64,000 bases of DNA, from positions 32,001 through 96,000 of IMG/VR virus record IMGVR_UViG_3300019124_000038. The stretch is one strand, 5' to 3'. The translations under genes were made by a program, and so were the position numbers. A model generated the notes under the pieces. That model saw nothing but the letters and a program-made list of their open reading frames with translations, made no database searches and was not told the origin of the DNA. This stretch comes from a virus. Shown piece after piece: positions 6,049-58,267 of the stretch (its first letter is position 1; each line of letters begins with the position of its first letter).

Positions 6049-7437
6049 ATGAGACGAAGATGGTGGCTAGGCGGGCATGAAGTTGAAATTAACCCATCTC
6101 AATTAGGCTACGATAAAAAGGCAACTGCACAGCCAATTGTTACAGCTAATGGAGTAGTGTCTAACCCAAATAGATTCTATGACAGGCAATTAAATTTTCA
6201 ACTGAATATCCTTGACCAACCTACAAGGATTGAGCGACCAACTATGGCAAAATTCCCTTCTGGCAAATACACGGCGATCACAGAAGACGCTTTCTTCTCG
6301 CAATACTATCTGCTGAACACAATCGGAAATTCGATTGACGTTTACAGCAGGAGCGGGGCTGTCATTAAGGCATTCGGCATCAAACAAGCGAATGTGGCTT
6401 TTGGCAAGGCGGTCTTCACAACGACAGGCAACAATGGTGGCTCGATCACTGACGGAAACACTGACACCTACTGGGATATGTTGGGAAACAATGGAGGAGA
6501 TGCTGTTGTTGACTTAGGTTCTCTGGTCACGATCAATTCAATCTCTTTTACGACAAAGATGTATACAGCCGATATTCAGGTAGACATATCTTCTGATGGA
6601 ACAAACTATTCAACAGCATTCTCTCTAACTTCTTTTTCGGGAGGAGAAAAGGAGCAAACAATTTCCCCAAGTGCCACACGATATATCCGTCTTAGGGTTT
6701 CGAATCTTACAGGGAATGGCGGAGACTCGATGTTCGTATCCGAGTTGTCAGCAAAGTTCATTCCTGTCGGAAATGCAAGCGGTGTTGCGTATATGAATGG
6801 TGAAGTTGCATGGTTCTATCCAAACCAAGGCGGAGGGGCGGCAGTAGTAATCACTGACGAAAATGGATTCGAAAATCGTAAATATTACTATGCAAACGAT
6901 GCAAACCTCAAAGATGTGAACCATATTACTTACTCGTCAAATGACAACTCACTATACTGTATGAACAAGTACGGGAAGATCATAGCAATTAGCTTGACAG
7001 ACGGATCGGCGATAGTAAAGAAGCAATTTACTGACTACGACACTAACGCTAATGGCTCGATGGCAATTTACAGAAGTGTCCATCTATACGGAGACTTTAT
7101 TGGAGTTGTTAAGAACAGTACAGTTGAATATTACACGCTATCAGGATATTCGATCTTTCACCGCATCGAATTGCCAACAAATATTGTAGCTCTGACAACC
7201 GATGGAATGACAAGAACATTCCACATGATTAGCAATACAAAACTCCAATCCTTAAACATGAATCTGTCCATCATTGAGTTAGAACAGGTCAAATCTGTAC
7301 TTGGAACAGGGTTCTTCACGCTTACTGACGATAGCAATATCCCAAAGCGTGTCGCGCTAACTGATATGAGTGTCAGACGGGTTCGTGAGATGTCGGAGCT
7401 TCGGTACGAGGTTAGTGTGAACGGAATTGAGCAGTAA
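6049..7437 (+). CDS. Second Dit-like tail protein with propeller-like region and F5/8 type C (discoidin) module
   Basis: Paralogous termini to 5054..6046; discoidin motifs ITDGNTDTYW, VVDLGSL, SSDGTNY, TRYIRL. Confidence 0.55.
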   Translation: MRRRWWLGGHEVEINPSQLGYDKKATAQPIVTANGVVSNPNRFYDRQLNFQLNILDQPTRIERPTMAKFPSGKYTAITEDAFFSQYYLLNTIGNSIDVYSRSGAVIKAFGIKQANVAFGKAVFTTTGNNGGSITDGNTDTYWDMLGNNGGDAVVDLGSLVTINSISFTTKMYTADIQVDISSDGTNYSTAFSLTSFSGGEKEQTISPSATRYIRLRVSNLTGNGGDSMFVSELSAKFIPVGNASGVAYMNGEVAWFYPNQGGGAAVVITDENGFENRKYYYANDANLKDVNHITYSSNDNSLYCMNKYGKIIAISLTDGSAIVKKQFTDYDTNANGSMAIYRSVHLYGDFIGVVKNSTVEYYTLSGYSIFHRIELPTNIVALTTDGMTRTFHMISNTKLQSLNMNLSIIELEQVKSVLGTGFFTLTDDSNIPKRVALTDMSVRRVREMSELRYEVSVNGIEQ

Positions 7438-7443
7438 GGAGGG

Positions 7444-9504
7444 GTGGGAATGATCGCAGTAACTCAAACTTATCAACAAGCGTTTGACTCAGACACCCGA
7501 ATGTGGCGGCTGAAAGTCGAGATTCAACGGAATGACAATCCGAATGACATATGGGTAGATATCTCAGATCGTGTTCTCCAGTGCTCGATCAGCCACGACT
7601 ATGAGCGTCGCAATAGCACGGCAAACATCGAGCTGGATAATTTCGACGCTTCTCTTTCTCCTTTCAATAGAAACAGCTCTACCAATTTCGTTGGTGGTGT
7701 CTACAATCCATTATTAGACGCTATGCACAAAATCCGCGTCTCCTATGGACTACTGACGACGGCTGGCTATGAGTACATTGTCAAATTCACGGGCTTGCTC
7801 GGCGACGACATTGATACAGAGTCATATCCTAGTCAAATCTCACTCGCTTGTCGTGACTTGTCAAAATACCTACAGGACACCTACATCTTCCAAAGCAAGA
7901 CATACAAAACAACGGTTGTTGAGAATGTTATGCAGGACATGATTAGCCAGTTCGTTCCCGAGCTAGGTCTTACAGTTCAAATTCAGAATGACACCAAATT
8001 CATGATCGGCAGACCAGATCAACCGTACACAGCGAAAGATATCAACCTTTGGGATGCCCTGCAACAACTTGCAGATGCGGCAAGCCATGAGCTTCGATTC
8101 CTTGAAGACGGGAGACTTATTCTGCGGAAAATTGTCAGAGACTTTACTGGAATTACTCCAGTTGCAATATTTGATGAAAGCCAACTTGTAAAAGACACGC
8201 TAAACATCAGTGACGCAGATATTCGGAACCACATCGTTCTAAAGGTACAAGGTCTCAATCCGATTGAAAAGGTTGACGCTCATTCTGTAGCTCAATATGG
8301 AAGACGATACATGGAAGTCCATCGTTCTATGGCAAACATCATCACAACTGCTGAACAAGGTCATCAACTTGTGCAAGATATGCTGTATGATCTGAGCCAT
8401 GTCGCACCAAACGACAATCTTGAACTTGCCCTTTACCCTCAAATCCAAGTTGGCGACTTCGTTGCTGTTCGGAATACACAAACTGGCACTGATCCTACTT
8501 ATGACATCTTCCGAGTGATTCGTGTTCAGGATAGGTACACAGCAAATAGCAAGCGAACAACTCTTCAACTAAAAGGCAAAACGAGCTTCATCCCAGAAGA
8601 ATCCATTGCCCCAAGACCCCCAACAAACCTGAGAGCATCCTTAATTTCCAGACAGGTATTCAATTACCCAAACTCTGGATGGGCAGGAGACTCCAAGACA
8701 ACATACTATCCGCAGATTCAGTGGGATGCACCCACGGCAAACATTAGCGGAACGGGTATCGGAGTTGACTTTGGCGGCTACACGATCTATCGTAAAGACG
8801 ATCTTCACGCAGGGATGGTGAATGTAGGCTCAGTAAGATGGGCACAGGTTAGCGGGAACCAAAACAAGTGGTGGCAATATCCAGCATCGGTCACCACAGA
8901 GTCTAGCTTGCAAGGTGACTATATAATCACGACATCTGGTCAAAGCATGACCATCAAGATGCTCAACCCATTAAAGCCTAACGATAACTGGTCTGTAGTT
9001 GTTAACACTCAATTCTCTGGCGGCGCGTATCGTCCAAAAGTTGATGTTTTCCGCTCGGGAAACTCGGTCAAAACAACTGGCGCAATGCCATTGACTTTAG
9101 GTACAGCAGTCCCAGTCCGTGTGGATATCATCAGCGGCAATGTCAATGTGTATACGGGAAATGTCTACACTACGCCATTTTGCACGATGGCAATTCCAAG
9201 CGGAGTCAGCCTAAGATTCGATTCTATCCGTGGGTTTGTTTCTCAGGACTACGCCTATGTTCAGAATTTGAAGTACAAGGGCAATGACTGGTATCCAGTG
9301 GCTACGATTGCTTCCTACATTCCGTCAATGAATTTGAAGGTGCAACATTTCTACGACTATACAGTTTCAGGCGGAGCGCAGTACGAGTACAAGATGACGG
9401 CTGTAGATAAGCTAGGTGCGGTTTCTACAAGCTCTCAGATTTTATCAATTGCAGTACAGCCAACAACTTATGCTACTTTGCCAAGCCAAGGTAGTGGTGG
9501 TTAA
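7444..9504 (+). CDS. Baseplate hub/Tal-like tail protein with C-terminal FN3-like domain
   Basis: Position after Dit-like genes; hub-like motifs (WDALQQLADA, S.AQYGRR); FN3 motifs PRPPTNL...WDAP...GYTIYR...YEYKMTAVD. Confidence 0.6.
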   Translation: MGMIAVTQTYQQAFDSDTRMWRLKVEIQRNDNPNDIWVDISDRVLQCSISHDYERRNSTANIELDNFDASLSPFNRNSSTNFVGGVYNPLLDAMHKIRVSYGLLTTAGYEYIVKFTGLLGDDIDTESYPSQISLACRDLSKYLQDTYIFQSKTYKTTVVENVMQDMISQFVPELGLTVQIQNDTKFMIGRPDQPYTAKDINLWDALQQLADAASHELRFLEDGRLILRKIVRDFTGITPVAIFDESQLVKDTLNISDADIRNHIVLKVQGLNPIEKVDAHSVAQYGRRYMEVHRSMANIITTAEQGHQLVQDMLYDLSHVAPNDNLELALYPQIQVGDFVAVRNTQTGTDPTYDIFRVIRVQDRYTANSKRTTLQLKGKTSFIPEESIAPRPPTNLRASLISRQVFNYPNSGWAGDSKTTYYPQIQWDAPTANISGTGIGVDFGGYTIYRKDDLHAGMVNVGSVRWAQVSGNQNKWWQYPASVTTESSLQGDYIITTSGQSMTIKMLNPLKPNDNWSVVVNTQFSGGAYRPKVDVFRSGNSVKTTGAMPLTLGTAVPVRVDIISGNVNVYTGNVYTTPFCTMAIPSGVSLRFDSIRGFVSQDYAYVQNLKYKGNDWYPVATIASYIPSMNLKVQHFYDYTVSGGAQYEYKMTAVDKLGAVSTSSQILSIAVQPTTYATLPSQGSGG

Positions 9505-9554: not shown

Positions 9555-12500
9555 ATGACTAATTCAAGGTTTCTGATGTACGAGAGTACCAATGATCGGT
9601 TCACAAAGACGATGACTGACTACGGGCAAATCGTGCAGATCATTTCTGAGCAATACATTAATGTTAATATTCAAGGTGCTCGGGATGCGAACGGAGAAAT
9701 GGTCATTCTCGAACAAGTTGCCGTTGCTGGTGACTATGTTCCTAAGCTCGGAGACTGGGTAGGAATCGAGTGGAGAAATGGTCAGCCTGTAGCTATTGGA
9801 ACTAACAACACGGCGGCGGGAATCAACGATATCAACAACAATGTCAAAATCATTTCTCCGCAGGACATGACCAACAATGTCGTGAAGTCAAACCACATCC
9901 AAGCTGAATCAATTCTTGCACGTCATATTAAAGCGGGCGAGATTCAGGCAGATCACATCTCAGCCAACTCGATTGACGCTACAAAGATCAAGGCAGGGGA
10001 AATCACTTCCGTCCATATTTCAGCGAACTCAATTGATACAATGCACATCAAGGCGGACGCGGTAACTGCAACACAAATTTCTGCCAATTCTGTTGTTGCA
10101 GAAAAGATTGCGTCTGGAGCCATCACCACCGAAAAGATCGCGGCGGGAGCGATTACAGCAGTTCAAATCTCCGCAAACGCAATTGATGCAACTAGAATGA
10201 AGGTTGGAACGATTACTGCCGCTTCTGGTATCCTTGCCAGTGCTTCTGTTGGAACAGCCAACATCATCGACGGTTCAATCACGAACGCGAAGATTGGGAA
10301 CGCAGAAATCACAGGAGCTAAGATTGCAAATGCAACAATTGACACAGCACAAATCAAGGACGCGGCAATTACAAATGCCAAAATCCAAGATGTGAGTGCT
10401 GGAAAGATCACTACGGGATACCTTGACACGGCTCGTATCCAAGCTGGTTCGATTACTGGCGACTTGATCTCTGCCAACACAATTACTGGTGACAAAATTG
10501 CGGCTCGTACAATTGAGAGTGGACAGATCAAAGCTGGAGCGATTACTACTACCGAACTTGCGGCTGGTAGCGTCACCGCTGAGAAAATCAAAGCTGGCAC
10601 TATCACTGGTGAGCAGATTCATGCTGGCTCTATTTCTACCGAGCATATCTCTACGGTCGGCCTTGATGCTCGAAGCATTAAGATTTATAACGGAGATAGC
10701 GGTGAGACCCTGCTTGGTTCTGGCTACATTCGTGTGGACGGGTTCGATGTTGGGGTAGTTCAGTCAGATAACCTTGTTTCGAACGGTCTGTTTCTCATTA
10801 ATTCGAAAGATTGGGGTCTTCGACGCAAGAACATTGAGGGAGAACCTATCCTTGGACTTGGAAACTCCGCATCTGGCGGTAATACCATTTGGGCTTATGA
10901 CCTTCTTACAACCCCGCCAACACTCGTTACCGATTCTCTTCTAGCAGGGAAAAAACCAGCTTGCATTCTGATCTCGCAAGACGGGACAACTGCATATGTG
11001 TCGAATCAAGGCGACGGAACAGTATCGAAATTGAACCTCATGTCTGGCGCAGAGGTTGCTACGCTGTCAACGGGTAAAGAGCCTACAGTTATGAAGTTTA
11101 CCTCTGATGGAAGGTACATCCTTGTCTTAAACTCAGACTTGAATTCACAATCTTCACCAGACACAGTGGCGGTCATTGATACGATCACATTCACTGTCGT
11201 AAAAGAATTGATTGTAGGTTCAACTCCATTCGATATCGTTGTGAGCGGCAATACTGCATACATCTCAACAGGTATCGACGGCGATATCTACATCCTCGAA
11301 ACTGATGAGATGAAGGTTGTTGGAGCAATCCCGACTGGCAAACTTGCCTACCCAACAGGGATGGAGCTTTCAACTGACGGAGTATTCGTCTATGTGTCAC
11401 ACTCCCTTCTCGACGAAGTTGGGAAGTATGATATTAACTCTGGGGAACTCGTGACTACCGTGCCAGTAGGAGATACACCTAGCTTTATTGAGCGGCACAA
11501 TGGCAAGCTGTATGTAGCCGCATCTGGTAGCAATAAGGTCGCAGTCATTGATGAAGTGACATTCACGGTTGAAGCGTCAATTGATGCTGGCGTTAAACCA
11601 GTTGGTCTTGCTGTTAATCCGTATGCTGGTACTGCGGGTTATCTGTTTGTGGCATCTAGTGGTATCAACAAGGTACTTATCGTTGACATGGCTATCAACG
11701 CAGTTATTGGGTATCTTGATGCTGGAGCGAATGTACTGAATTTAGCGTTCAGTCCAGACTATCGCTACCTGTATATGACGAACAACGGCGACTCTAGCTT
11801 TATTTCCTTCACTTATCCCGAGGGAGATTTCATCGGTGATGCATATGTTAGTGCAGACGGTACGACAAAATACTATGGTGCGGACTACTGGATGCCAAAC
11901 CGTAGTGATCGAGTAATCGACGGTAGTGGTAATATCATTGGCGCGGCTTCTGTAGAGTTCCATATCGGTGAGCCGAAGAACAATGAGGGCGGATATGCCA
12001 AACTGCTCGTAGCTGGCGGCGTTAACCAGTATGCATACATTGAGCAGGACATCTTTGGTGTAACGAACTTTTCTGACGGCGTTTCGCCTACAGGAACTTG
12101 GTTCAAATATCATAACATTTCTGCTCAGATGATGGCGCAACAGCCAGTAGCCCCCAACATTGTCACTAAGCTGGAAGTAGATGAGCTTGTTCCGAAATTC
12201 ATCGTTGTAGAAGACACACAGACCGTTCCATTTACTCCGCTTGCGGATGGCGTGAATCAGGAGTACGAGGGTCTTGTGCTCAGTGCTATGACGAATCGTG
12301 CCCTCAATCTGCCAACAACTAGTATCACTTCATCTGACCCTGCGGCGACTGGTTTTGAAAAGCTAGTTGATGGAAGCCACTTCGACTATGAAAGTAATGT
12401 GTCTCTTGCAAGCGGAAATCAGTGGGTACAGCTTGATCTTGGTGATTTATACATGGTAAACACTGTCAAGATGTGGAGATACTACGGAGATGGTAGAACA

Positions 12501-15140
12501 TACAATGGTACAAAGGTAGAAGTGTCTACCGATGGGGTTAGTTGGACTACCGTGTATGACCAGACAATCTCTGGTGGGTATGCGGAGACACCAGAAGGTA
12601 AGACGATCATATTCCCTTCTTGCCCTGCCCGTTTCGTGAGATTTTGGTCTAATGGTAGCTCGGCGAATGAGTTCAATCATTGGGTAGAGTTGCAGGTATT
12701 CGGAGACTGGAAACTAGAGATGGCTCCAACTACGACCATTCTTGTGAATGGTGTCCCTACTCAGGCTCCGATGACCAACAATGGGACACACATCACTACG
12801 GATGTGGCACAGGCTTATGTCGAGTACAACATAGACATTGAGTTTCTGTCTGACTGGTACTATACCTATATCTCAGGCGCAGAGTATGGTACTTGCCGTC
12901 TCTATATTGACGATGCCTCTCAAAAGAGAATCGACGGCACTACAAACCTGTATATCTTCCAAAATGGCAACTCTACAATGCCACAGGCATTCCAAGGCTC
13001 CAAGCTCAAAACGGGTCGTCATAAGATTCGTATTGAGCAAAGCTCTGGTAAGATCAGTTTTGACCGTCTCAGATTCGACGACTTCCAATACTACATGAAG
13101 TCTTCAACACTATTTAATTCAGCAGACACTAACTGGAGCAGAGTGAAGCTGGTTCCAGTAAATGCGCGTGGATATGTGGGTCAAGGTCGTCAAACAACTA
13201 GTGGTGCATTTGATACTCCACGGGTTAACCCAAGAACTGGTCAGCCAGATGGTAGCGTTGAAATCAAGTACCGAGTTCGGGTTCGCACCGATCTTATCGG
13301 AGGTGGCACGGCAGTTGCAGGAGTCACCTATGTAACAGGAGTTATCTGTGAAACAGGCAAGCTCCATACGCACTGGAGAAAGTCGCAGTCCTTTGAACGA
13401 TTCCCAAGCGAAATGCTCGAAGAATGGAGCGACAATAAGCCATTTAGTTCGGGTATTCAGACGAAGCATATCGCAGATGGCGCGGTGTTGGGCACAAAGA
13501 TCAAGTCTCAATCTCTGATGGATTGGCACATTAACCCATATGCTAAAATTGCAGAGTTCAAACTTGACCTTAGCTACCCAACACACCCGCACGAAAACAA
13601 GGAAGCTCTTGACTTAATCCTTGGGTTCAGCGGCAATGGGGTCTCGAACTACATGGCACGGGCAGACCATGATCATAACAACCTGTACTACACGAAGATT
13701 GAAATTGACCAGCGTTTAGGGAATGGAGCTGGCGGGTCAGGAGATATCTTAGCTTCTGGTAATAACATCTTCTATGGCACAAACACCTTCATGCAGACTG
13801 TTACGATGATGGGTGATCTCAATGTCAGCGGTAACATCAACTATCACGGAAGTAGCGCGATTATTGGAGACCAATCTATAACTGGTAGCTTAACGGTTGG
13901 TGGGGCTCTAATCCTAAATCAACAAGCTACAATGGAAAACCATGCGGTTCGCGCAGATCGTCGAGTTAATGCTGGAGCTGGCTTAACTGGCGGCGGTAAC
14001 TTGACCACAGATGTGACTCTCTCTGTGGCATTCTCTGGCAACGGTTCATCGTATATGGCTTCACACAGCGACCATAATCACGATAACTGGTATGTTCGAA
14101 CAGATAGAGAGAACCAGACTGTTAAAAATGGACTTACCATGACAAATGGAACAATGTACCTCGGCACAAACAGCTCTGGCAATAGCGGATCACTTGTTCT
14201 GAGAAACAACTTGGGGCTTACATCCATTCAGATTGATGGTGCTGGAAGTGGAATGATCTCTGGTGTGAAATCCTATATTGGAGCTGATGGATCGGCTAAA
14301 TTCGCTTCGATTGTGCAAGTCGGAAGCCTAAAAGTCGATGATTCGACTCTTGTGCAAAAACTGAACGCTCAATTCTTGAACGGTAAAAGGGATACCGATT
14401 TTGTTGATACTCTGTCAATTGTAGAGAACTTGGGGTCAGGTGTGCTTAATGGTCTTGTTATGACACAGACTGCTCCAACACCGACTAACGCTGTGACGAT
14501 CAGTGCAGGTGTTGTGTATACAAAATCGGGTCGTCGCGTATCCATCCCACAGCAGAATGTCACAATTCCTGCGGCAAGTGCGGTTGGAGACCGATATGAT
14601 TATGTATACATTTCTGGTTCATCTGACCCGCTCGGAGATGGTGTGATTAGAGTTCTGTCTGGTGCGGTAGGTGGCTCCTTCCCGACACTTCCTTCAGATG
14701 CTATTCTGCTTGGCTATGTGCATGTAAGAAAGAACAACAACACATTTACTGATGGTAAGGACGGGACACCAAAAGACATCAACAGCCAGAGATACATGAA
14801 GAGTATCTATGCCGACTCGACTGGTTCGTTCGTATCTGGAAGGCTGAAAACAGGTGAGATTACTCCTGTTACGGATGGACAGCCAATTGGCATTGGTGGT
14901 GTTCTCATGCAAAATGGAGCGTCATTTGCAGGAGAGGTTCTAATTCCAGCAGGTCAGACAGTAGTGGAAGTTGTTCATGGCTACGATTCATTGCCTGACT
15001 ACTATATCTTCTTATCCTGCAATTCTCCACATCGGCATGTGTACTGGAACAAGACCGATGTTGACAGGTTTGAAATCTGTCTTGATGATGCATATGACTA
15101 TCCTGTTACTGTCAACTGGTTCATTGTAGGAACGGCATAA
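9555..15140 (+). CDS. Large tail fibre/spike, receptor-binding protein (I-x-A-x-x-I repeats, YVTN-type beta-propeller, discoidin, HxH fibre motifs)
   Basis: Long run of [IV].A..I[TD]A..I repeats; YVTN-like repeats (AYVSNQGDGTVS, LYVAASGSNKVAVID); discoidin WVQLDLG...EVSTDG..W; DHDH/DHNH motifs. Confidence 0.75.
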   Translation: MTNSRFLMYESTNDRFTKTMTDYGQIVQIISEQYINVNIQGARDANGEMVILEQVAVAGDYVPKLGDWVGIEWRNGQPVAIGTNNTAAGINDINNNVKIISPQDMTNNVVKSNHIQAESILARHIKAGEIQADHISANSIDATKIKAGEITSVHISANSIDTMHIKADAVTATQISANSVVAEKIASGAITTEKIAAGAITAVQISANAIDATRMKVGTITAASGILASASVGTANIIDGSITNAKIGNAEITGAKIANATIDTAQIKDAAITNAKIQDVSAGKITTGYLDTARIQAGSITGDLISANTITGDKIAARTIESGQIKAGAITTTELAAGSVTAEKIKAGTITGEQIHAGSISTEHISTVGLDARSIKIYNGDSGETLLGSGYIRVDGFDVGVVQSDNLVSNGLFLINSKDWGLRRKNIEGEPILGLGNSASGGNTIWAYDLLTTPPTLVTDSLLAGKKPACILISQDGTTAYVSNQGDGTVSKLNLMSGAEVATLSTGKEPTVMKFTSDGRYILVLNSDLNSQSSPDTVAVIDTITFTVVKELIVGSTPFDIVVSGNTAYISTGIDGDIYILETDEMKVVGAIPTGKLAYPTGMELSTDGVFVYVSHSLLDEVGKYDINSGELVTTVPVGDTPSFIERHNGKLYVAASGSNKVAVIDEVTFTVEASIDAGVKPVGLAVNPYAGTAGYLFVASSGINKVLIVDMAINAVIGYLDAGANVLNLAFSPDYRYLYMTNNGDSSFISFTYPEGDFIGDAYVSADGTTKYYGADYWMPNRSDRVIDGSGNIIGAASVEFHIGEPKNNEGGYAKLLVAGGVNQYAYIEQDIFGVTNFSDGVSPTGTWFKYHNISAQMMAQQPVAPNIVTKLEVDELVPKFIVVEDTQTVPFTPLADGVNQEYEGLVLSAMTNRALNLPTTSITSSDPAATGFEKLVDGSHFDYESNVSLASGNQWVQLDLGDLYMVNTVKMWRYYGDGRTYNGTKVEVSTDGVSWTTVYDQTISGGYAETPEGKTIIFPSCPARFVRFWSNGSSANEFNHWVELQVFGDWKLEMAPTTTILVNGVPTQAPMTNNGTHITTDVAQAYVEYNIDIEFLSDWYYTYISGAEYGTCRLYIDDASQKRIDGTTNLYIFQNGNSTMPQAFQGSKLKTGRHKIRIEQSSGKISFDRLRFDDFQYYMKSSTLFNSADTNWSRVKLVPVNARGYVGQGRQTTSGAFDTPRVNPRTGQPDGSVEIKYRVRVRTDLIGGGTAVAGVTYVTGVICETGKLHTHWRKSQSFERFPSEMLEEWSDNKPFSSGIQTKHIADGAVLGTKIKSQSLMDWHINPYAKIAEFKLDLSYPTHPHENKEALDLILGFSGNGVSNYMARADHDHNNLYYTKIEIDQRLGNGAGGSGDILASGNNIFYGTNTFMQTVTMMGDLNVSGNINYHGSSAIIGDQSITGSLTVGGALILNQQATMENHAVRADRRVNAGAGLTGGGNLTTDVTLSVAFSGNGSSYMASHSDHNHDNWYVRTDRENQTVKNGLTMTNGTMYLGTNSSGNSGSLVLRNNLGLTSIQIDGAGSGMISGVKSYIGADGSAKFASIVQVGSLKVDDSTLVQKLNAQFLNGKRDTDFVDTLSIVENLGSGVLNGLVMTQTAPTPTNAVTISAGVVYTKSGRRVSIPQQNVTIPAASAVGDRYDYVYISGSSDPLGDGVIRVLSGAVGGSFPTLPSDAILLGYVHVRKNNNTFTDGKDGTPKDINSQRYMKSIYADSTGSFVSGRLKTGEITPVTDGQPIGIGGVLMQNGASFAGEVLIPAGQTVVEVVHGYDSLPDYYIFLSCNSPHRHVYWNKTDVDRFEICLDDAYDYPVTVNWFIVGTA

Positions 15141-52246: not shown

Positions 52247-52945
52247 GTGGCATTCATCTATATGAGCAACGGGGAGCCAGTAGAGATTGATGATGAGGAT
52301 TTCGCTTGGCTTAGTCAGTACAAATGGAGACCAGACAAAGATGGATATGCGCGAACGACTTGGAGGCAAGATGGGACACGGTATGACAGACGAATGCACC
52401 GCATGATTTTAGATGCTTCTAGGGGTCAAATTGTAGATCATATCGACGGGAATCGCCTTAATAATCGCAAAAACAATCTTCGTTTTGTGAGTAGCCGACA
52501 AAACTCACAAAACATGAAGAGACCGCGCACAAACACTACAGGCTATAAGGGTGTAGTGAAGCGCAGAGAAAATAGGTATGAAGCGAAAGTCACTCACGGC
52601 GGAGATTGTTTGTACTGCGGAACATACACGAATGCTCTTGCCGCCGCACATGCCTATAATTACAACGCTAAGTTATGCTTCGGTCAGTTCGCACAGCTCA
52701 ACGAGGTCGAACCTTTGGATGATTGGAGAGACTTTCGGGTTGCGACTGTTCCGAAATCACAATGGCGTGGAGTGAGTGAAAAAGGCGATAAGTGGCAAGC
52801 ATCTATTTTTCATGAAGGTCAAAGAGTCTATATTGGTCTATATGAGACAGAGATTCAGGCGGCTTTAGCCTATAACGCTAAGGCATCTGAGTTAAAAGGA
52901 GAAAGTGCTGTATTGAACGAAGTGGAGGATGATCTAGTATGCTAG
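52247..52945 (+). CDS. Free-standing HNH homing endonuclease with two AP2-like domains
   Basis: MHRMI...VDHIDGNRLNNRKNNLR; GYKGV...AA.AYN and WRGV...AALAYN. Confidence 0.9.
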   Translation: MAFIYMSNGEPVEIDDEDFAWLSQYKWRPDKDGYARTTWRQDGTRYDRRMHRMILDASRGQIVDHIDGNRLNNRKNNLRFVSSRQNSQNMKRPRTNTTGYKGVVKRRENRYEAKVTHGGDCLYCGTYTNALAAAHAYNYNAKLCFGQFAQLNEVEPLDDWRDFRVATVPKSQWRGVSEKGDKWQASIFHEGQRVYIGLYETEIQAALAYNAKASELKGESAVLNEVEDDLVC

Positions 52946-53805
52946 GAATTGCATTCGCAGGAGGTGGAATCAGAGGAAGTGTCGAACTCGGCATCGTAAA
53001 GGCTTTCTACGAAGCGAACATTCGCCCAACAATCTTTACTGGTGCATCCGCTGGTTCAATTGTGGCAGGGCTACTAGCGATGGGCTACAGTCCTGACGAA
53101 GCATTCGCTGAGTTTTCAAAAGTTGGTAGTGATGTAATGGATGTAGCGTATGGTCATATCCTGTCTGGTCTCTTCTCGAAAGAACGAGTGCAAGGACTAG
53201 TTAGGGGTGACAGATTAGAGTCTATGTTGAACATGCTCTATTGCCGACGACAAATGCATGGGATTCCACAACCTAATAAGTTGGCAGTTGTTGCGACAGA
53301 CATCCAGACAGGCAAACAGATCATTTTTGCGAATCAAGACCCAGTAGACACAAGCATGATTGGTGATGATAATTTCGCATGGTTTAATCAGAGCACTTTG
53401 CCAATCAGTTTTGCTGTTCGCAGTTCATGCTCTTTCCCCGCCGTCTTCTTACCGAAGAGGTACATGGATTATGTATTAGTGGACGGGGGACTCACCAACA
53501 ATGTCCCATCGGATATTGCGCGGGCACTGGGAGCAACACAGGTCATTACTATTGATCTTGGCTACAACGGGGAGAAAGAGGAAGTAGGTGGTATCGCTTC
53601 AATCATCGGGAAAAGCATTTCAATTCTCATGGAGCGCGTAAACGATCATAATAACGATACACATGGAATCTATCTGAATCCTAGCGTGGATGATGTTGGA
53701 ACATTTGATTTCTCGCAAATGGACGAACTCTACCAGATCGGCTATAGATACGGGAAAGCAATGATCCAAGAAGTTCGTGAGAAGCTAGTCCTTGCCACAG
53801 CCTAG
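52939..53805 (+). CDS. Patatin-like phospholipase
   Basis: GGGIRG, GASAG nucleophile, SCSFP..F, LVDGG. Confidence 0.9.
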   Translation: MLGIAFAGGGIRGSVELGIVKAFYEANIRPTIFTGASAGSIVAGLLAMGYSPDEAFAEFSKVGSDVMDVAYGHILSGLFSKERVQGLVRGDRLESMLNMLYCRRQMHGIPQPNKLAVVATDIQTGKQIIFANQDPVDTSMIGDDNFAWFNQSTLPISFAVRSSCSFPAVFLPKRYMDYVLVDGGLTNNVPSDIARALGATQVITIDLGYNGEKEEVGGIASIIGKSISILMERVNDHNNDTHGIYLNPSVDDVGTFDFSQMDELYQIGYRYGKAMIQEVREKLVLATA

Positions 53806-53821
53806 CAATCTATGTTATACT
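53792..53821 (+). promoter_or_regulatory. SigA-type promoter of the radical SAM operon
   Basis: TTGCCA-N18-TATACT with extended -10 TG; same CC prefix and downstream TATAAG as other phage promoters. Confidence 0.65.
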
Positions 53822-53851
53822 ACACCTATAAGATAAGAGGAGGAACACCGC

Positions 53852-54187
53852 ATGGTAACAATCGCAAATGGCGTTGTTTTCAATGACACCCATGTCGTAA
53901 CAACAACTGAGCTTTTACGGCTCTCCTTCTATGGGACAGGCAATGAGAATGTCATCATTGCCTTTGCTCCTAGTGTTGAGCGTCGTGGCTTGAAAGTTCT
54001 AAATGATTTCAAGCAAAACGGTACAGCAAAGATTCAAGTGTACAACAACGGTGTGCTTATCTTTGAAGATAGTGCCTATACAGATGTACAGTTCGAATAT
54101 GCCAAGAACGACACGCAAAATCTGGTAGAGCAACTGAACTTCACCAAGTCTGTTTCTTCGCTATCGACATCTACGGTCAGCGGGTAG
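53852..54187 (+). CDS. Hypothetical beta-rich protein, first gene of rSAM operon
   Basis: RBS GAGGAGG; 111 aa. Confidence 0.6.
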   Translation: MVTIANGVVFNDTHVVTTTELLRLSFYGTGNENVIIAFAPSVERRGLKVLNDFKQNGTAKIQVYNNGVLIFEDSAYTDVQFEYAKNDTQNLVEQLNFTKSVSSLSTSTVSG

Positions 54188-54196
54188 GTGTTATAG

Positions 54197-54853
54197 ATGC
54201 CAGCACAGAAAGGTACAGTTTGGATTACCGATTCTGAGTTTCATCTGGTAGGTGAGGACGGACTGCATTGGTACTATGTCGGCACTGATGCGGGTGCGGC
54301 TCCAGCGGATGCAGACCTTGGCTCTATTTGGGTTAACACCAATCTGTATTACATCGACGCTAACGCTAGGATTCGGTATATCCCAAGCGTAGTCATGAGC
54401 GCTGTGCAGGGTGTTGCTGGTAGTGCATGGATTAATAACCGTTTCCTCTACTGGCTAGATAACACAAAGACCATCCGATACGGTCATTCAGATGTCGCAG
54501 GATACAACGACTACGGCGATTCACGCGCTCACGGAGACACGGCATTCTATGACAGGGCACATACCGATTCCTATGGCACATATACAAACTGGGCGCATAG
54601 CGACACTCCTCACTCTGACAACGCACACGGTGACTGGCAACCATACTGCGACGTAACTGGTTGCTCGCCTACGCACGGTGATTATGGACATGGCGATAGT
54701 CCACATAGTGATAATCCGCATGTAGATTCACCAGCGCAATATTTCGATATTCCACACGGGGATACGCCACATAGCGACACCCCACCATACTCGGATTACG
54801 GCGATTCTCGGGCACATGCAGACTACCCACGACAGGGAACGACAATTGCATAG
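54197..54853 (+). CDS. His/Tyr-X-Asp repeat protein, putative substrate of the adjacent radical SAM enzyme
   Basis: Three N-terminal G[ST].W[IV] repeats, then 20 aromatic-X-Asp motifs in residues 97-209. Confidence 0.75.
   Translation: MPAQKGTVWITDSEFHLVGEDGLHWYYVGTDAGAAPADADLGSIWVNTNLYYIDANARIRYIPSVVMSAVQGVAGSAWINNRFLYWLDNTKTIRYGHSDVAGYNDYGDSRAHGDTAFYDRAHTDSYGTYTNWAHSDTPHSDNAHGDWQPYCDVTGCSPTHGDYGHGDSPHSDNPHVDSPAQYFDIPHGDTPHSDTPPYSDYGDSRAHADYPRQGTTIA
54485..54823 (+). repeat. Coding repeat array of H/Y/F-X-D motifs (mostly 5-residue period)
   Basis: HSD,YND,YGD,HGD,FYD,HTD,HSD,HSD,HGD,YCD,HGD,HGD,HSD,HVD,YFD,HGD,HSD,YSD,YGD,HAD; YGDSRAH occurs near both ends. Confidence 0.85.
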
Positions 54854-54864
54854 GAGGGGAAAGG

Positions 54865-56079
54865 ATGGCTAACGAAGTTAGACCTATGGGTGTAGCATGT
54901 AATCTTAAATGCACTTACTGCTATCAGAACCCTCTTCGGGATGCGGGGAATATCAATACTCTGTATGATCTCGAAAAGATCATCGAGCAACTTGACAAGA
55001 CCACATCAGAGTTTCACCTTTTCGGGGGTGAAGCTCTACTAATCCCGAAGAAAGATTTAGAGGTTCTTTGGTCATACGGATTAAAACGGTTCGGACAAAA
55101 CGGGATTCAAACGAACGGCGTACTTATCGACGCTGAACACGTAGAACTGTTCAAAAAATATAAAGTTTCTGTCGGCATCTCTATCGACGGCCCTGCCGAA
55201 CTCAACGACATGCGTTGGGCGGGTTCTCTCGACAAGACACGGGAAGCAACGCAAAAGATCATGGACAACATCGTTATGCTGGCTAATGAGGGTGTGCAGA
55301 TGGGCATTATCATCACCATCCACAAACTTAATGGTATGCCAGAACATCTTCCACGACTGCTCAATTTTATTCGTTGGCTCGGAGATATCGGCGTTAAAGG
55401 CGGCAACATTCACACCCTTGAAGTCGATAATGAGATTGTAAGGAACATGTTCTGTCTGACAGAAGAAGAAAATCTTTATGCGTTCCTGACTCTGGCGCAG
55501 TTCTTTCAGGAGAACCCTGATCTGTCATGGAATCCGTTCGGAGAAATATACAAGCTCCTCCAAGGTGATGACTACGGGGCTAACTGTAATTTTAAACGAT
55601 GTGATTCTATGAACACTCAGGCGGTCTATGGCATTGAAGGGAATGGCGCACTGTCTAACTGCTCTCGCACTAACAAAGAAGGTATCGACATGTATAAGGC
55701 AGACGATCATGGCTATGAGCGCTACATTTCGCTCTACCACACGCCGCCTGAGTATGGTGGCTGTAACGGTTGCCGTTTCTGGTCGATCTGCGGTGGATCA
55801 TGTCCCGGTGAAAGTGTTAATGGAGACTTTAGAAACAAAACAATACACTGTCAAACAATGAAGGGTATTCTCGGTTTCTACGAAGAAGTTCTGGAGAGCG
55901 AGGGTATTCAACCTATCACTAAGCATCCGAATCTCTACGAATACGAGAGAGAGATGTTGAAGTGGATGGCGCAAGGTCAGAACTGCTTGCTCAGTGATGC
56001 TATCAGGATGGTTGATGGTCGCGGGGAAAATGGCGAAATTCGCGTAGTTCCTGTGTACAGAAATGAAGGGAGGGAGTAA
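54865..56079 (+). CDS. Radical SAM/SPASM-domain peptide/protein maturase (no N-terminal RRE)
   Basis: CNLKCTYC (CX3CX2C), FGGEAL, QTNG, SIDGP; SPASM C...C...C plus CNGCRFWSICGGSC (CX2CX5CX3C) and distal Cys. Confidence 0.9.
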   Translation: MANEVRPMGVACNLKCTYCYQNPLRDAGNINTLYDLEKIIEQLDKTTSEFHLFGGEALLIPKKDLEVLWSYGLKRFGQNGIQTNGVLIDAEHVELFKKYKVSVGISIDGPAELNDMRWAGSLDKTREATQKIMDNIVMLANEGVQMGIIITIHKLNGMPEHLPRLLNFIRWLGDIGVKGGNIHTLEVDNEIVRNMFCLTEEENLYAFLTLAQFFQENPDLSWNPFGEIYKLLQGDDYGANCNFKRCDSMNTQAVYGIEGNGALSNCSRTNKEGIDMYKADDHGYERYISLYHTPPEYGGCNGCRFWSICGGSCPGESVNGDFRNKTIHCQTMKGILGFYEEVLESEGIQPITKHPNLYEYEREMLKWMAQGQNCLLSDAIRMVDGRGENGEIRVVPVYRNEGRE

Positions 56080-57041
56080 TGATGGAACTGCTTGGCTTTG
56101 ACATGCCGCCGTTTGCGCGTATTCAATATGTTACAGCAGGTGTCAAGAACGAGTGGGAGCCGCGTGTTGCAAGAGCCGCAAAAGCCTACTACGATCTGGA
56201 GCTTCTAACTGTCAAGCATGGAGTACGCGCATGTACTACACGTCATGTCTCTCCACAGAACTTGGAGTATGACTTACAGAACTTTGCGCGGCATGGTCTT
56301 GTGTGGCTTCCGATTCAACGAGTGGGAAGCTATCAGGGCTTTGCTCACAAGCATCCTCCTGTTCAGGAAGGTCGCCCTTGGGCTTGGTATGGTGTAGTGG
56401 CTCGTACAATGGAAGACGCTTTGAAGTTTGTCGAAGCATCGACGACAAAGTTCGACCACGATGTTCTTGGTCAGCTTCTTGGCTATCCCGACTGTTGTCG
56501 AAAGTTTTTTAATGAGGTGTGGGGGGCAGGGTATATTGACCCAATATGGCAACAAGCAGGAGGTGATCTTGAACACATGATACAGCATGAGGTCACGGAA
56601 GGTCAGGAAATGGTGCACTTCTCCAGTAGCGTCTCACATTTGACCGTATCCATGCTTCGTTATATTGGTGTGCGTATCGTACCGCATATCCCGTGCTCTG
56701 TAGGTTGCAAACATTCAGAGCATATTGCTCAGGCATGGTTTGAAGTCGGAGAGAAAGAGGAGGTAGAAGGTCTCCGTGATCTTGTAGCCCTCTTGACTCT
56801 GCCTACTGAATGGGACTGCCTGAGAGGGATTGCCGTTGTCTCTACACCTTTGTTCAAGATTCAGACGAACTCTATGACCACAACGAAGCGGTACATTGTT
56901 CGTAAGGATGGCGAATGGTATCCAGAAGAAGCACCAAGCGGCTTGAAGTTTCCTTGGCAAACGAAAGTAGGATTCGGATGTAATACCAGTATTCGCTCAC
57001 ACGCCAAGTCTGATCTGATTCAAGTAGAGAGTACACAATGA
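56079..57041 (+). CDS. Cys/His-rich protein with DUF483-like LGYPxCC motif
   Basis: GQLLGYPDCCRKFF, PHIPCSVGCKHS; start overlaps rSAM stop. Confidence 0.55.
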   Translation: MMELLGFDMPPFARIQYVTAGVKNEWEPRVARAAKAYYDLELLTVKHGVRACTTRHVSPQNLEYDLQNFARHGLVWLPIQRVGSYQGFAHKHPPVQEGRPWAWYGVVARTMEDALKFVEASTTKFDHDVLGQLLGYPDCCRKFFNEVWGAGYIDPIWQQAGGDLEHMIQHEVTEGQEMVHFSSSVSHLTVSMLRYIGVRIVPHIPCSVGCKHSEHIAQAWFEVGEKEEVEGLRDLVALLTLPTEWDCLRGIAVVSTPLFKIQTNSMTTTKRYIVRKDGEWYPEEAPSGLKFPWQTKVGFGCNTSIRSHAKSDLIQVESTQ

Positions 57042-57211
57042 AACTTCTCCGCATATTGTTAGTGCCAATCACGTACCCGATTTTCGTGGTTCTCGTTATT
57101 CTCGCGAATTTACTTATAGTAGTAACATTTGGAGATGTTCGTTGGGCATGGATATTCGCAGGATGGGTACAGGATTACTACTATTGGATAAGTGAATGGA
57201 GGTATATGTAG
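57038..57211 (+). CDS. Small membrane protein (57 aa, not in ORF track)
   Basis: ATGA overlap with upstream stop; long hydrophobic helix then Trp/Tyr-rich tail. Confidence 0.45.
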   Translation: MKLLRILLVPITYPIFVVLVILANLLIVVTFGDVRWAWIFAGWVQDYYYWISEWRYM

Positions 57212-57429: not shown

Positions 57430-57458
57430 TTGACAAATCTGTCACTAAAGTCTATAAT
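57430..57458 (+). promoter_or_regulatory. SigA-type promoter for erf
   Basis: TTGACA-N17-TATAAT. Confidence 0.85.
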
Positions 57459-57499: not shown

Positions 57500-58267
57500 A
57501 TGAAAACATCTGAAAGTCTAGTAAATTTCGCTCCTGCTTTTGTCGGATTTAGCTCAGAGGTAGAACGAATTGAGAAAGATCGTCGTAATCCGCACTTTAA
57601 GAATGACTACGCGACGCTTGACCAACTGATCGACGCAACACGTCCGATTCTTGCCAAATATGGTTTGGCTGTTACTCAGAGTGCGGCTGGAGATGAAAAC
57701 GGGAATGTCGTTCTTACAACTCGGGTAATGCATACCTCTGGCGAATGGCAAGAAACAGAGCCTCTTATCATGAAGCCTGTGAAAACAGACCCGCAAGGCA
57801 TGGGTTCCGCAACTACTTATGCGCGACGTTATCAATACGCGGCGGCTCTGAATCTGAGTACTGGCGAGGATGATGATGGCAACGACGCAAGCGGCATCGG
57901 TAATACGGATAAGACACCCGCTCCTGATGTAGAAACCCGTCGCCAAAATGCGCGACAAGAAGCCATGAATCGTCGCAACTCTGGAGGTAACAATTCCACT
58001 CCTACCGCACCGACTACTCCAGCAGAAACGACCTCTGCAAGCATGGAGAGCACAGGCATGATTACTGATGGTCAAGTCAAGTCCATCAATAACATGACGA
58101 ATGTACTTGACCGCAAGTACGGTGACGAACGCGTAGGTTCCCGACTGCTCGGCGACAAGCTGGCTGAATATGGCAAGGGCGATCTCTCCGAGCTAACCTT
58201 TGACGAAGCGGCTGGTATCCTGTCTACCTTCAACGGAGCAATGCGTAACAAACCGACCTTCAACTAG
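57500..58267 (+). CDS. erf: ERF-family ssDNA annealing protein
   Basis: KD..NPHFK..YATLD, L.HTSGEW, PQGMGSATTYARRY, EDDDG. Confidence 0.9.
   Translation: MKTSESLVNFAPAFVGFSSEVERIEKDRRNPHFKNDYATLDQLIDATRPILAKYGLAVTQSAAGDENGNVVLTTRVMHTSGEWQETEPLIMKPVKTDPQGMGSATTYARRYQYAAALNLSTGEDDDGNDASGIGNTDKTPAPDVETRRQNARQEAMNRRNSGGNNSTPTAPTTPAETTSASMESTGMITDGQVKSINNMTNVLDRKYGDERVGSRLLGDKLAEYGKGDLSELTFDEAAGILSTFNGAMRNKPTFN

Follow-up and report, generated by a model that had tools for sequence, protein, structure and literature searches.

Triceptide synthases join the C2 of histidine, or the ring of tyrosine or phenylalanine, to the C-beta of the residue two positions downstream, and their motifs include HTK, HAA and YDR (PMC11499958). 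In the XyeB/XncB, GrrM/OscB, YhhB, HaaB, HtkB, ChlB and AmcB systems, as in the phage locus described here, a radical SAM (rSAM)/SPASM enzyme without an RRE is encoded next to a substrate carrying aromatic-X-X motifs. The triceptide substrates are short leader-core peptides, whereas the phage substrates range from 176 to more than 1,000 aa, contain a folded domain and carry up to about 100 motifs. The phage family is further set apart by a third motif residue limited to Asp or Asn, by an obligate DUF483(-methyltransferase) partner, by its predominantly phage-borne distribution and by the lack of a peptidase or exporter; its crosslink chemistry is putative. We know of no triceptide system with a DUF483 partner.

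A whole protein is the substrate in the HXS antiphage system, where HxsA, with His-Xaa-Ser repeats, is matured by the rSAM enzymes HxsB and HxsC, with HxsD, and blocks phage DNA entry (PMC13128918). HXS resembles the phage locus in pairing a protein with His-x-small-residue repeats with SPASM-type rSAM enzyme(s) and a small or unknown partner, and in its place in phage-host biology. However, HXS is bacterial, uses Ser rather than Asp, has only five repeats, which are basic, and includes a signal sequence, a peptidoglycan-binding domain and two rSAMs. The phage array is acidic and built on H/Y-x-D, and its enzyme is not close to HxsB or HxsC. A further likeness is to the tip of the T4 long tail fibre (gp37; PDB 2XGF), an out-and-back hairpin with in-register His-x-X ladders at the distal end of the fibre. 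There, HxH motifs bind Fe, and chaperones are needed but no rSAM. No sequence or fold relation of the window protein to gp37 was detected.

A three-gene "rSAM module" has been reported in the Thermus phages Cumys and phiMa, for which DNA modification was suggested; neither the HxD motif nor a protein substrate is mentioned (Kolesnik 2024, Viruses 16:1410, PMC11437467). These phages share with our locus the order repeat protein, rSAM, DUF483, and all three genes are homologous and adjacent in both. The rSAM is 47-48% identical to our enzyme, and the "protein of unknown function" is an HxD-array homologue (29.5-30% identity, E 4e-14). In Cumys and phiMa, however, the module comes after baseplate/tail-collar genes, with about 60 motifs in its array, whereas our locus lies in a replication region and has 20 motifs, a third of them with Tyr or Phe. 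The first-pass annotation of our locus knew of no phage system like it in the literature. That statement has to be narrowed, since the three-gene module was published in 2024.

Gene content and conservation of the operon

The window is a 64,000-nt stretch of viral DNA (positions 32,001 to 96,000 of IMG/VR record IMGVR_UViG_3300019124_000038). The first-pass annotation had proposed a tightly packed, five-gene operon behind one promoter. All five ORFs are where it placed them (Table 1), with intergenic gaps of 9, 11, -1 and -4 nt in order, and a promoter-like site precedes them. GGAGG-type ribosome-binding sites lie upstream of the 111-aa, rSAM and 320-aa genes. Judged by the ATGA in which the start of the 320-aa gene overlaps the end of the rSAM gene, these two genes are translationally coupled. 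Five genes proved too many for the system itself: by comparison across genomes, the conserved core consists of the repeat protein, the rSAM and the DUF483-like protein.

Table 1. Positions of the operon's features and borders in the window.
Feature	Position	Strand	Remarks
Sigma-70-like promoter (TTGCCA-18-TATACT, extended TG)	53792..53821	+	Precedes operon; 10/12 consensus matches, consensus match only
ORF, 111 aa	53852..54187	+	No assigned function; clade-specific accessory outside conserved core
Repeat protein, 218 aa	54197..54853	+	Putative substrate
Repeat-protein N-terminal domain, aa 1-98	54197..54490	+	Three ~30-aa "GSxW...LxYxD" modules; predicted all-beta
Array of 20 aromatic-x-Asp motifs, aa 97-209	54485..54823	+	Putative modification sites
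Radical SAM/SPASM enzyme, 404 aa	54865..56079	+	Without RRE
DUF483-like partner, 320 aa	56079..57041	+	
Hydrophobic ORF, 57 aa	57038..57211	+	
Perfect consensus promoter (TTGACA-17-TATAAT)	57430..57458	+	Before ERF recombinase gene; downstream boundary of operon

The 111-aa ORF had no match in Pfam, NCBIfam or PHROG and no similarity to the same-position ORFs of two related phages (L005 and L006). The gene is common only to the window phage and a sister phage, L165, whose copy is 36% identical (E 7e-22). The position of the 57-aa ORF is kept in the sister phage while its sequence is not conserved, and it is probably outside the system. In the window the operon sits among replication genes, not tail genes. 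The operons of the window phage, L005, L006 and L165 alike lie among replication/nucleotide-metabolism genes, with their own promoter and beside a patatin-like phospholipase gene; in this clade the repeat protein measures 176-222 aa. In many other phages the module is found downstream of tail-fibre genes.

The same gene trio recurs in more than 100 phages and a few bacteria. By sequence comparison the rSAM family is discrete and mostly phage-borne, with at least 335 sequence clusters and members on at least 124 viral contigs in IMG/VR. The pairing of enzyme and motif-rich neighbour, first noticed in the window, is conserved across phage genomes. Of the 74 loci with enough upstream DNA to test, 68 have a same-strand ORF dense in aromatic-x-[D/N], so that homologous rSAMs usually have such a neighbour; in 55 it ends no more than 400 nt before the rSAM start. 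ORFs fall into two groups by motif density (0-6 and 8-17 per 60 aa), a bimodal distribution. One seeming exception, L008, has an HxD gene 8 nt after a second rSAM. A DUF483-like ORF is present at 74 of 80 loci.

Fusions join these components as well. Among the rSAMs of the 80 loci, 43 carry their own C-terminal tail with at least three HxD motifs, as do many database homologues, and rSAM-DUF483 fusions exist among homologues. A fusion to DUF364/DUF4213 "heavy-metal chelation" domains occurs in one homologue. In three bacteria (L086, L087 and L092) the rSAM-DUF483 pair is accompanied by short HxD peptides with an "RRxLLxAGWxxPV" leader, by PqqD (38-46 bits, cutoff 23.4) and by an HprK-related kinase, and in a fourth bacterial locus, L090, an 88-aa HxD peptide is encoded immediately upstream of an rSAM-DUF483 fusion. 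In pairing short leader-bearing HxD peptides with PqqD, the rare bacterial versions follow classic RiPP logic.

The motif array and the neighbouring proteins

The 218-aa protein has 20 Asp in residues 97-209, each with an aromatic at -2 (13 His, six Tyr, one Phe), and all 13 His of this stretch lie within HxD, exactly as the first-pass annotation had counted. None of 100,000 composition-preserving shuffles gave 20 motifs (maximum, 13). We conclude that the arrangement is far beyond chance; no other array of this kind occurs in the 146.5-kb record of the phage. Motif spacing is mirror-symmetric about YCDVTGC, and in the sister phage a compensatory spacing change keeps the symmetry. This spacing implies that the array forms an in-register hairpin.

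Is the grammar of the array a property of the family? Across 88 arrays (18,635 aa), His is followed at +2 by Asp in 82% of cases and by Asn in 16%, together 98%; Asp is preceded at -2 by His, Tyr, Phe or Trp in 91.5%; and 59% of Phe have Asn at +2. Tyr, Phe or Trp may thus stand in for His, while Glu makes up 1.0% and Lys plus Arg 0.8% of residues. By this grammar (aromatic at -2, Asx at +2, Glu about 1%), what the arrays require is an aromatic ring and an Asx side chain, not merely metal ligands or charge.

AlphaFold2 (AF2) predicts a disordered array (pLDDT 40-48), with confidence regained as a strand at the C-terminus, and a confidently folded N-domain (pLDDT 82-97 per 10-residue block, 11 strands). 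The N-domain is conserved among 47 distinct homologues. Its likeness to beta-prism II lectins is weak, whether to LLPA (3m7h; Z 4.1, rmsd 4.6 A over 91 residues) or by Foldseek (E 0.13), and so is that to Marasmius lectin and curculin (Z 2.2-2.6). The repeat protein has no detectable signal peptide or peptidoglycan-binding domain.

The 404-aa enzyme matches the Pfam Radical_SAM model (PF04055; 61.9 bits, cutoff 29.5; 1e-16). Its CX3CX2C begins at residue 12, with C12, C16 and C19 invariant among 41 homologues, and therefore leaves no space for an N-terminal RRE; no PqqD match was found with Pfam. Further Cys residues (241, 246, 266, 300-x2-303-x5-309-x3-313 and 329) are all invariant or nearly so across the 41 homologues, C246, C266, C300, C303, C309, C313 and C329 being invariant or at least 90% conserved. 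The Pfam SPASM model gave no report at E<=0.1, but full-length NCBIfam alignments to PapB, Clo7bot, CefB and QhpD span the SPASM region. Hence the features that the first-pass annotation had listed, namely CX3CX2C, a full SPASM Cys set and no RRE, were all borne out, and these residues and alignments place the enzyme in the SPASM subgroup. SPASM domains are typical of peptide and protein modifiers.

Which characterised family does it resemble? The best NCBIfam similarities include AmcB, YhhB, DynA, GrrM/OscB and XyeB, all cyclophane- or ether-forming maturases, and the top scores are tied among anSME, DynA/DarE and cyclophane enzymes. However, the enzyme falls below every cutoff of the curated NCBIfam triceptide, Hxs and anSME models (bits/cutoff: AmcB, 74.4/425; YhhB, 68/445; XyeB, 52.7/450; GrrM, 50.1/310; FxsB, 37.4/370). 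The triceptide families, best or near-best in similarity, are thus missed by 4-9 fold, and the enzyme is therefore not assignable to any characterised one. HxsB and HxsC are absent from its 25 best NCBIfam matches, that is, below 34.9 bits. A PDB sequence search matched two families only, anSME and the triceptide synthase ChlB. Sulfatase maturase, a reading that the first-pass annotation had left to be checked, was ruled out: TIGR03942 scored 76.4 bits against a cutoff of 349 with the N-terminal core alone aligned, and there is no sulfatase gene in the operon or its flanks. The other four operon ORFs had no NCBIfam match.

The 320-aa partner scores 20.5 bits against DUF483 (PF04467), under the cutoff of 25; clear homologues pass, among them that of L021 (31.6 bits), several database relatives carry the domain, and its atlas neighbours are 16-43% PF04467. 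Most relatives also have a methyltransferase domain, which is absent here. The description of this protein as Cys-rich was generous: it has seven Cys, of which only C139, C140 and C210 are conserved. Its predicted fold gave no functional clue.

Candidate chemistry and biological role

We consider it probable that the three-gene cassette matures the 218-aa protein into a full-length product by triceptide-type stapling, the chemistry being putative. The folded beta domain and the unstructured array of 20 triplets, brought into register as a hairpin, would be the substrate, and the RRE-less enzyme with its coupled DUF483-like protein would modify each triplet post-translationally. The likeliest chemistry would be H-atom abstraction at the C-beta of Asp or Asn, followed by C-C bonding to the ring (imidazole or phenyl) of the residue at -2. 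Each motif would thereby become a triceptide-type three-residue cyclophane and lose 2 Da.

A functional link between the rSAM and the repeat protein, as the first-pass annotation proposed, is supported by the synteny in more than 100 phages, the HxD tails fused to rSAMs and the bacterial RiPP-like cassettes with PqqD. Chemical modification of the triplets is very probable, with ring-forming crosslinks as its likely form; that these run from aromatic to Asp we infer from the motif grammar alone. The product would be a rigid, multiply stapled protein rather than a cleaved, secreted peptide. This suggestion, too, was upheld, by the conserved folded N-domain and by searches of Pfam, NCBIfam and PHROG that found no peptidase or transporter family in the operon, with no signal peptide on the protein.

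Perhaps the same substrate undergoes other chemistry on its aromatic-x-Asx triplets, with no intramotif aromatic-to-C-beta cyclophane? The Asx residue might be epimerised at C-alpha, or oxidised or hydroxylated at C-beta; the histidine ring might be modified; and C-O or C-N links, or crosslinks joining the two hairpin arms, would be further candidates. With all family models below cutoff, homology cannot transfer chemistry, and the tied top scores cover oxidation (anSME) and ether and C-C bonds (DynA/DarE) besides cyclophanes. The related HXS system shows an unexplained +8 Da rather than -2 Da (PMC13128918). In-register pairing of motifs on two arms would permit inter-arm links, and the methyltransferase domain of most relatives may point to multi-step chemistry. 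However, the strict i/i+2 relation of an aromatic (His, Phe, Tyr or Trp) to Asx is the triceptide grammar (PMC11499958), and Asx epimerisation or hydroxylation would need no aromatic at -2. We regard such other chemistry as unlikely.

It is very improbable, in our judgment, that the array stays unmodified and binds metal (Fe, Zn or Ni) as a hairpin or needle, with the rSAM and DUF483 proteins acting elsewhere, for example on DNA, or aiding folding. His and Asp, which dominate the array, are classical metal ligands; Glu is also a good ligand, and Phe cannot ligate metals. In principle, metal ions alone could hold the mirror-symmetric hairpin, which counts against stapling, and the symmetry kept in the sister phage and the C-terminal strand argue for a folded out-and-back structure. 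The tail-fibre position in many phages recalls metal-containing fibre tips, and the DUF364/DUF4213 fusion fits as well. Yet motifs with Phe (Phe-x-Asn, Phe-x-Asp) occur regularly, 16% of motifs have Asn in place of Asp, and Glu is almost excluded. Nor would metal binding explain the near-universal rSAM adjacency, the enzyme-fused HxD tails, the PqqD peptide cassettes or a SPASM domain. Hence a triceptide-type aromatic-to-C-beta crosslink fits the sequences better than metal binding alone.

Where might the stapled protein act? The gene for the homologous substrate closes the tail-fibre/baseplate block in most phages, where its product would probably be a virion fibre or needle. The full picture, in which phages staple tens of His/Tyr/Phe-x-Asx triplets on both hairpin arms to make a rigid needle, often as a tail-fibre protein, is possible but doubtful. 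In the window clade the gene would have been relocated to the replication region, a location that counts against a virion role here. For this clade the matured protein may instead be an intracellular or envelope effector, in superinfection exclusion or counter-defence, which we think quite unlikely. The genomic setting with its own promoter and phospholipase neighbour, the short substrate and the precedent of HXS for rSAM-matured repeat proteins in phage-host conflict (PMC13128918) speak for such a role. However, unlike HxsA, the protein lacks a signal peptide and a peptidoglycan-binding domain and is poor in Lys and Arg family-wide, HxsB and HxsC are outside the best matches of the enzyme, a PADLOC search gave no system match, and the N-domain is the same as in fibre-adjacent homologues.

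If stapling is correct, RiPP-type radical chemistry would extend beyond small secreted peptides to whole phage proteins, probably virion parts. It would represent a new class of protein post-translational modification, reveal a new factor governing how stable fibres are or how hosts are recognised, and offer a natural scaffold with up to about 100 enzymatic staples per chain. Function would be assigned to DUF483 and to the whole rSAM family. Should the needle picture hold, a triceptide would for the first time be known at protein scale, and a radical-SAM modification for the first time on a protein of the virus particle. The window version, short, Tyr/Phe-rich and methyltransferase-free, would be a minimal test case, and the system is directly testable, since the Thermus phages Cumys and phiMa can be grown in culture.

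Operon, surroundings and conserved core

The first-pass annotation had read five genes as one compact unit, and we found each ORF where it had been placed (table), with gaps of 9, 11, -1 and -4 nt and GGAGG-type ribosome-binding sites ahead of the 111-aa, radical SAM (rSAM) and 320-aa genes. Family searches of the operon ORFs gave no peptidase or transporter, as had been supposed. The phage record measures 146.5 kb in IMG/VR, at an estimated completeness of 76%. Every large ORF of the window lies on one strand; tail genes open the window, and those for DNA polymerase, helicase and primase occupy its middle. Ribonucleotide reductase (RNR), a DNA methyltransferase-like ORF recognized by sequence motif, HNH and patatin flank the operon on one side and the ERF recombinase on the other. 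The operon thus belongs to the replication region rather than to that of the tail genes.

Locations of the operon, its neighbors and related features elsewhere
Feature	Locus	Coordinates	Remarks
Patatin-like phospholipase gene	window	52939-53805	PF01734, 3.5e-26; directly upstream of operon
Promoter-like site	window	53792-53821	ahead of operon
111-aa ORF	window	53852-54187	
Repeat (HxD) protein, 218 aa	window	54197-54853	
rSAM, 404 aa	window	54865-56079	
DUF483-like partner, 320 aa	window	56079-57041	
57-aa ORF	window	57038-57211	
Perfect sigma-70 consensus promoter	window	57430-57458	TTGACA-17-TATAAT; 42 nt upstream of ERF gene; opens next unit
ERF recombinase gene	window	57500-58267	downstream of operon
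Virion-type ORF, 1673 aa	window	16-5037	endolysin-like domain; without aromatic-x-Asp arrays
Virion-type ORF, 1861 aa	window	9555-15140	tail-fiber PHROG matches; without aromatic-x-Asp arrays
Second ORF matching N-domain HMM	same phage, outside window	G000:C1:125818-126132, - strand	weak match (E 1e-4)
rSAM with HGD/HTD tail	L002 (Thermus phage phiLo)	5001-6449	
rSAM with HGD/HTD tail	L001	7038-8288	
Bacterial HxD peptide	L086 (Microcystaceae)	4248-4832	
Bacterial HxD peptide	L087 (Ardenticatenaceae)	7763-8194	
Bacterial HxD peptide	L092 (Isosphaeraceae)	7166-7477	
Bacterial HxD peptides	P0195, P0196		
Arrays of period 7-9	L020	1334-3940	one phage clade with L028
Arrays of period 7-9	L028	1985-3933	one phage clade with L020
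HxD gene after tail-fiber, J-like or baseplate genes	L048, L055, L057, L074, L083, L021; Cumys		

This gene order is shared by a sister phage, L165 (178 kb): RNR, patatin, 64 aa, 102 aa, HxD protein (222 aa), rSAM (408 aa), DUF483-like protein (323 aa), 58 aa and ERF. The patatin gene is thus kept at the same place. Of the two small ORFs, that of 111 aa is conserved only in this sister (36% identity) and not in the next relatives, L005 and L006, while that of 57 aa shows no sequence conservation, which leaves a conserved core of three genes. Searching 50,697 phage records with the operon by blastn gave no match. Among sequencing runs, the one listed as containing this DNA is a biocrust metagenome, from which the contig may itself derive; no RNA run is listed.

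A radical SAM family and its HxD partner

PF04055 (1e-16) identifies the 404-aa protein as a radical SAM enzyme. The first-pass description of its cofactor sites was accurate: by its position at residues 12-19 the CX3CX2C motif excludes an N-terminal RRE, and the SPASM cysteine set is complete (C246, C266, C300-x2-C303-x5-C309-x3-C313, C329). Across 41 homologues all of these cysteines are invariant or nearly so. Against curated NCBIfam models, every score fell far under its cutoff (bits/cutoff: anSME 76/349, DynA 76/450, AmcB 74/425, YhhB 68/445, PapB 68/340, XyeB 53/450, GrrM 50/310, FxsB 37/370), and the sole matches among PDB sequences were anSME (1e-10) and a triceptide synthase, ChlB (2e-5), both over the N-terminal core. 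These results define a discrete, uncharacterized SPASM clade which, judged by sequence, is not assignable to any characterized family; its mechanism may resemble that of a triceptide synthase. The possibility, raised at the outset, that the enzyme is a sulfatase maturase beside a sulfatase was rejected on its anSME score and because no sulfatase is present. Membership in the bacterial His-Xaa-Ser antiphage system (HXS) was likewise rejected, as neither HxsB nor HxsC is among the best 25 NCBIfam matches. Inteins (Hint plus LAGLIDADG) interrupt some family members (P0002, P0036, P0064), one of them twice; inteins usually reside in genes that matter to the phage.

The synteny survey proposed in the first-pass annotation revealed the trio of HxD protein, rSAM and DUF483-like protein to be a widespread, mostly phage-borne unit. 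By tblastn, the repeat protein has homologues in the Thermus phages phiMa and Cumys (~30% identity, E 4e-14), directly followed by the rSAM (47-48% identity) and the DUF483 protein. HMMER, run in full against 1.8 billion cluster representatives, returned 335 clusters of rSAM relatives at E<=1e-30. Scanning IMG/VR with alignment A2 (a single-protein query had given no match) yielded at least 124 contigs with a relative, and we examined 80 loci. Had homologous enzymes usually lacked an aromatic-x-Asp neighbor, the proposed pairing would have been in doubt. Among the 74 loci with at least 900 nt before the rSAM, however, 68 carry a same-strand ORF whose aromatic-x-[D/N] density is 8 or more per 60 aa; at 55 loci this ORF stops no more than 400 nt from where the rSAM begins. 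Over all ORFs, motif densities per 60 aa fall into two groups, 0-6 and 8-17. Loci seemingly without such an ORF are mostly cut by contig ends, and at L008 the HxD gene lies 8 nt after the second rSAM, just past the stretch first taken for analysis. A DUF483-like ORF is present at 74 of the 80 loci. Scanned with the nine-sequence alignment A3, only ~11 of 185,579 species genomes hold true members; a clear gap separates these (E<=1e-54) from generic anSME-like matches (E>=1e-18). Two tandem paralogous rSAM genes precede one DUF483 gene at L057, L065, L066, L068 and L071, and L008 has two of each; these pairs recall the two-rSAM HxsB/HxsC arrangement of HXS.

The motif is also found on the enzyme itself: an HGD/HTD-rich tail closes 43 of the 80 viral rSAMs, as it does many database homologues. 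This tail may be a substrate in cis, an element for docking or a segment that binds metal. One such enzyme is that of phiLo, where no separate HxD-array homologue was detected adjoining the rSAM; IS605-type transposase genes lie upstream. rSAM-DUF483 fusions occur, some adding methyltransferase, AAA or DUF364/DUF4213 domains, and at L090 a fusion is immediately preceded by an 88-aa HxD peptide. At bacterial loci the rSAM-DUF483 pair stands beside short peptides with an "RRxLLxAGWxxPV" leader, twin-arginine-like in appearance, and an HxD core; L086, L087 and L092 add PqqD (38-46 bits, cutoff 23.4) and an HprK-related kinase. This set appears to be an undescribed RiPP-like cassette of Cyanobacteria, Chloroflexota and Planctomycetota MAGs. 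Its layout follows ordinary RiPP cassette logic, which argues that the HxD sequence is the substrate of the enzyme. The comparative genomics, comprising synteny, fused tails and RiPP-like bacterial cassettes, thus strongly supports the enzyme-substrate pairing first proposed from the window alone.

The third component scores 20.5 bits against DUF483 (cutoff 25) and is clearly homologous to proteins of phages, bacteria and Nanobdellota-type archaea. Its AF2 model is confident (pLDDT 91.5). A profile search of PDB sequences gave no match, and Foldseek against PDB nothing at E<=1e-3; the best wider structure matches, at Z 5.8 to 2GUK (whose function is unknown) and Z 3.9 to NleE, are too weak to name a fold, and the Atlas returned other DUF483-like clusters only. 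Conserved residues include G-x-P-x-C-C (C139/C140) and C210. Most relatives, at ~480-500 aa, carry an added class-I methyltransferase domain that is absent from the window and Thermus phage versions. The partner may present the substrate, catalyze a second step or handle metal. In P0019 (998 aa) the rSAM is fused to DUF4213/DUF364 "putative heavy-metal chelation" domains, a fusion which hints that metal handling may belong to the system.

Array grammar, symmetry and candidate chemistry

Every Asp in residues 97-209 of the repeat protein had been said to follow an aromatic residue by two positions, and this was borne out for 20 of 20: position -2 is His (13), Tyr (6) or Phe (1), and all 13 His lie in HxD. 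In 100,000 shuffles of this segment the motif count never rose above 13, and the array is the sole one of its kind in the entire phage record. Across 88 distinct arrays (18,635 aa in total), the residue two after His is Asp (82.1%) or Asn (15.8%), together 97.9%; that two before Asp is His, Tyr, Phe or Trp in 91.5%; and Asn stands at +2 of 59% of Phe. Glu makes up 1.0% of residues and Lys plus Arg 0.8%, X2 is mainly Thr, Ser, Gly or Ala, and the modal motif spacing is 5. The window array is unusually rich in non-His aromatics, with 7 of 20 motifs versus ~8% of Asp -2 residues family-wide. The apparent requirement is an aromatic ring and, two residues on, a short Asx side chain. The clade of L020 and L028, with arrays such as "AAHTDNTTP" and "ASHSNATT", has several array proteins per locus and many H-x-N and F-x-N motifs; one protein of 869 aa holds ~58 H/Y/F/W-x-D motifs and more if H-x-N and F-x-N are counted.

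AF2 predicts a confident all-beta domain of three ~30-aa repeats in residues 1-98 (pLDDT 82-97), low confidence over the array (residues 100-207, pLDDT 40-48) and a short C-terminal strand where confidence is regained. The N-domain, usually beginning "MAKxPGSxWVEG...", is kept in 47 distinct homologues, one of them nanohaloarchaeal, and a conserved "QPVxVG" closes many arrays. Its predicted fold shows a weak likeness to beta-prism II lectins; in BFVD its single strong match is to a protein of 342 aa (E 2.9e-11), probably the homologue from phiMa. Some substrates are 770-1109 aa long and carry other N-terminal domains. PHROGs has no family for five large HxD proteins (766-1109 aa), and a sixth (717 aa) weakly matches a family of unknown function.

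The array is mirror-symmetric: 20 of 21 motif starts pair about its center (position sum 304). In L165, 20 of 22 pair (sum 308), with the 5-to-7 spacing change identical on both arms. Symmetry is also seen in the P0192, P0190 and phiMa arrays, and family-wide, 24 of 94 arrays are more symmetric than 99% of their spacing shuffles. Direct tandem duplication was rejected as its source, the best translational match covering 7 motifs versus 20 mirrored. The mirrored spacing argues for an in-register out-and-back hairpin, at least in this clade, and against a loose repeat. A conserved disulfide in the turn was discarded as a candidate, since L165 retains one of the two Cys only.

What might be done to such an array? 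A pure metal-ligand ladder fits less well: motifs include Phe, which cannot ligate metals, Asn, a poor ligand, replaces Asp, and Glu, a good ligand, is excluded. The grammar fits better with the triceptide rule, under which a crosslink joins an aromatic residue to the C-beta at position +2; known cases include links from His-C2 in HTK and HAA motifs and from Tyr in YDR (PMC11499958). Aromatic-to-Asp crosslinking in HxD arrays is plausible. Kolesnik et al. described the three-gene "rSAM module," though not the motif, and suggested that it modifies DNA (PMC11437467); the bacterial RiPP-like cassettes speak against that suggestion and for the HxD sequence as substrate. The first-pass view that no such phage system had been described needs amending, since the gene trio appeared in print in 2024 (PMC11437467), though with no insight into the substrate. 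Beyond it, our literature search found no description of a fiber-modifying phage rSAM, of phage triceptides or of HxD/His-Asp cyclophanes.

Biological role

The module of the window's clade (window, L165, L005 and L006) lies among replication genes, and its product may be an effector analogous to bacterial HXS (PMC13128918). HxsA, however, has a signal sequence, a peptidoglycan-binding domain and basic character, and the repeat protein has none of the three. Nor was a defense family matched: PADLOC found no defense system, the rSAM showing only generic core similarity to viperins and phospholipase-effector models (1e-11) matching the patatin gene only.

Many mid-sized phages have the HxD gene directly after tail-fiber, host-specificity (J-like) or baseplate genes. 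The most economical reading of this placement is that the family product would be a virion fiber or needle. In the window's clade, either the gene has merely relocated or the product would have another role.
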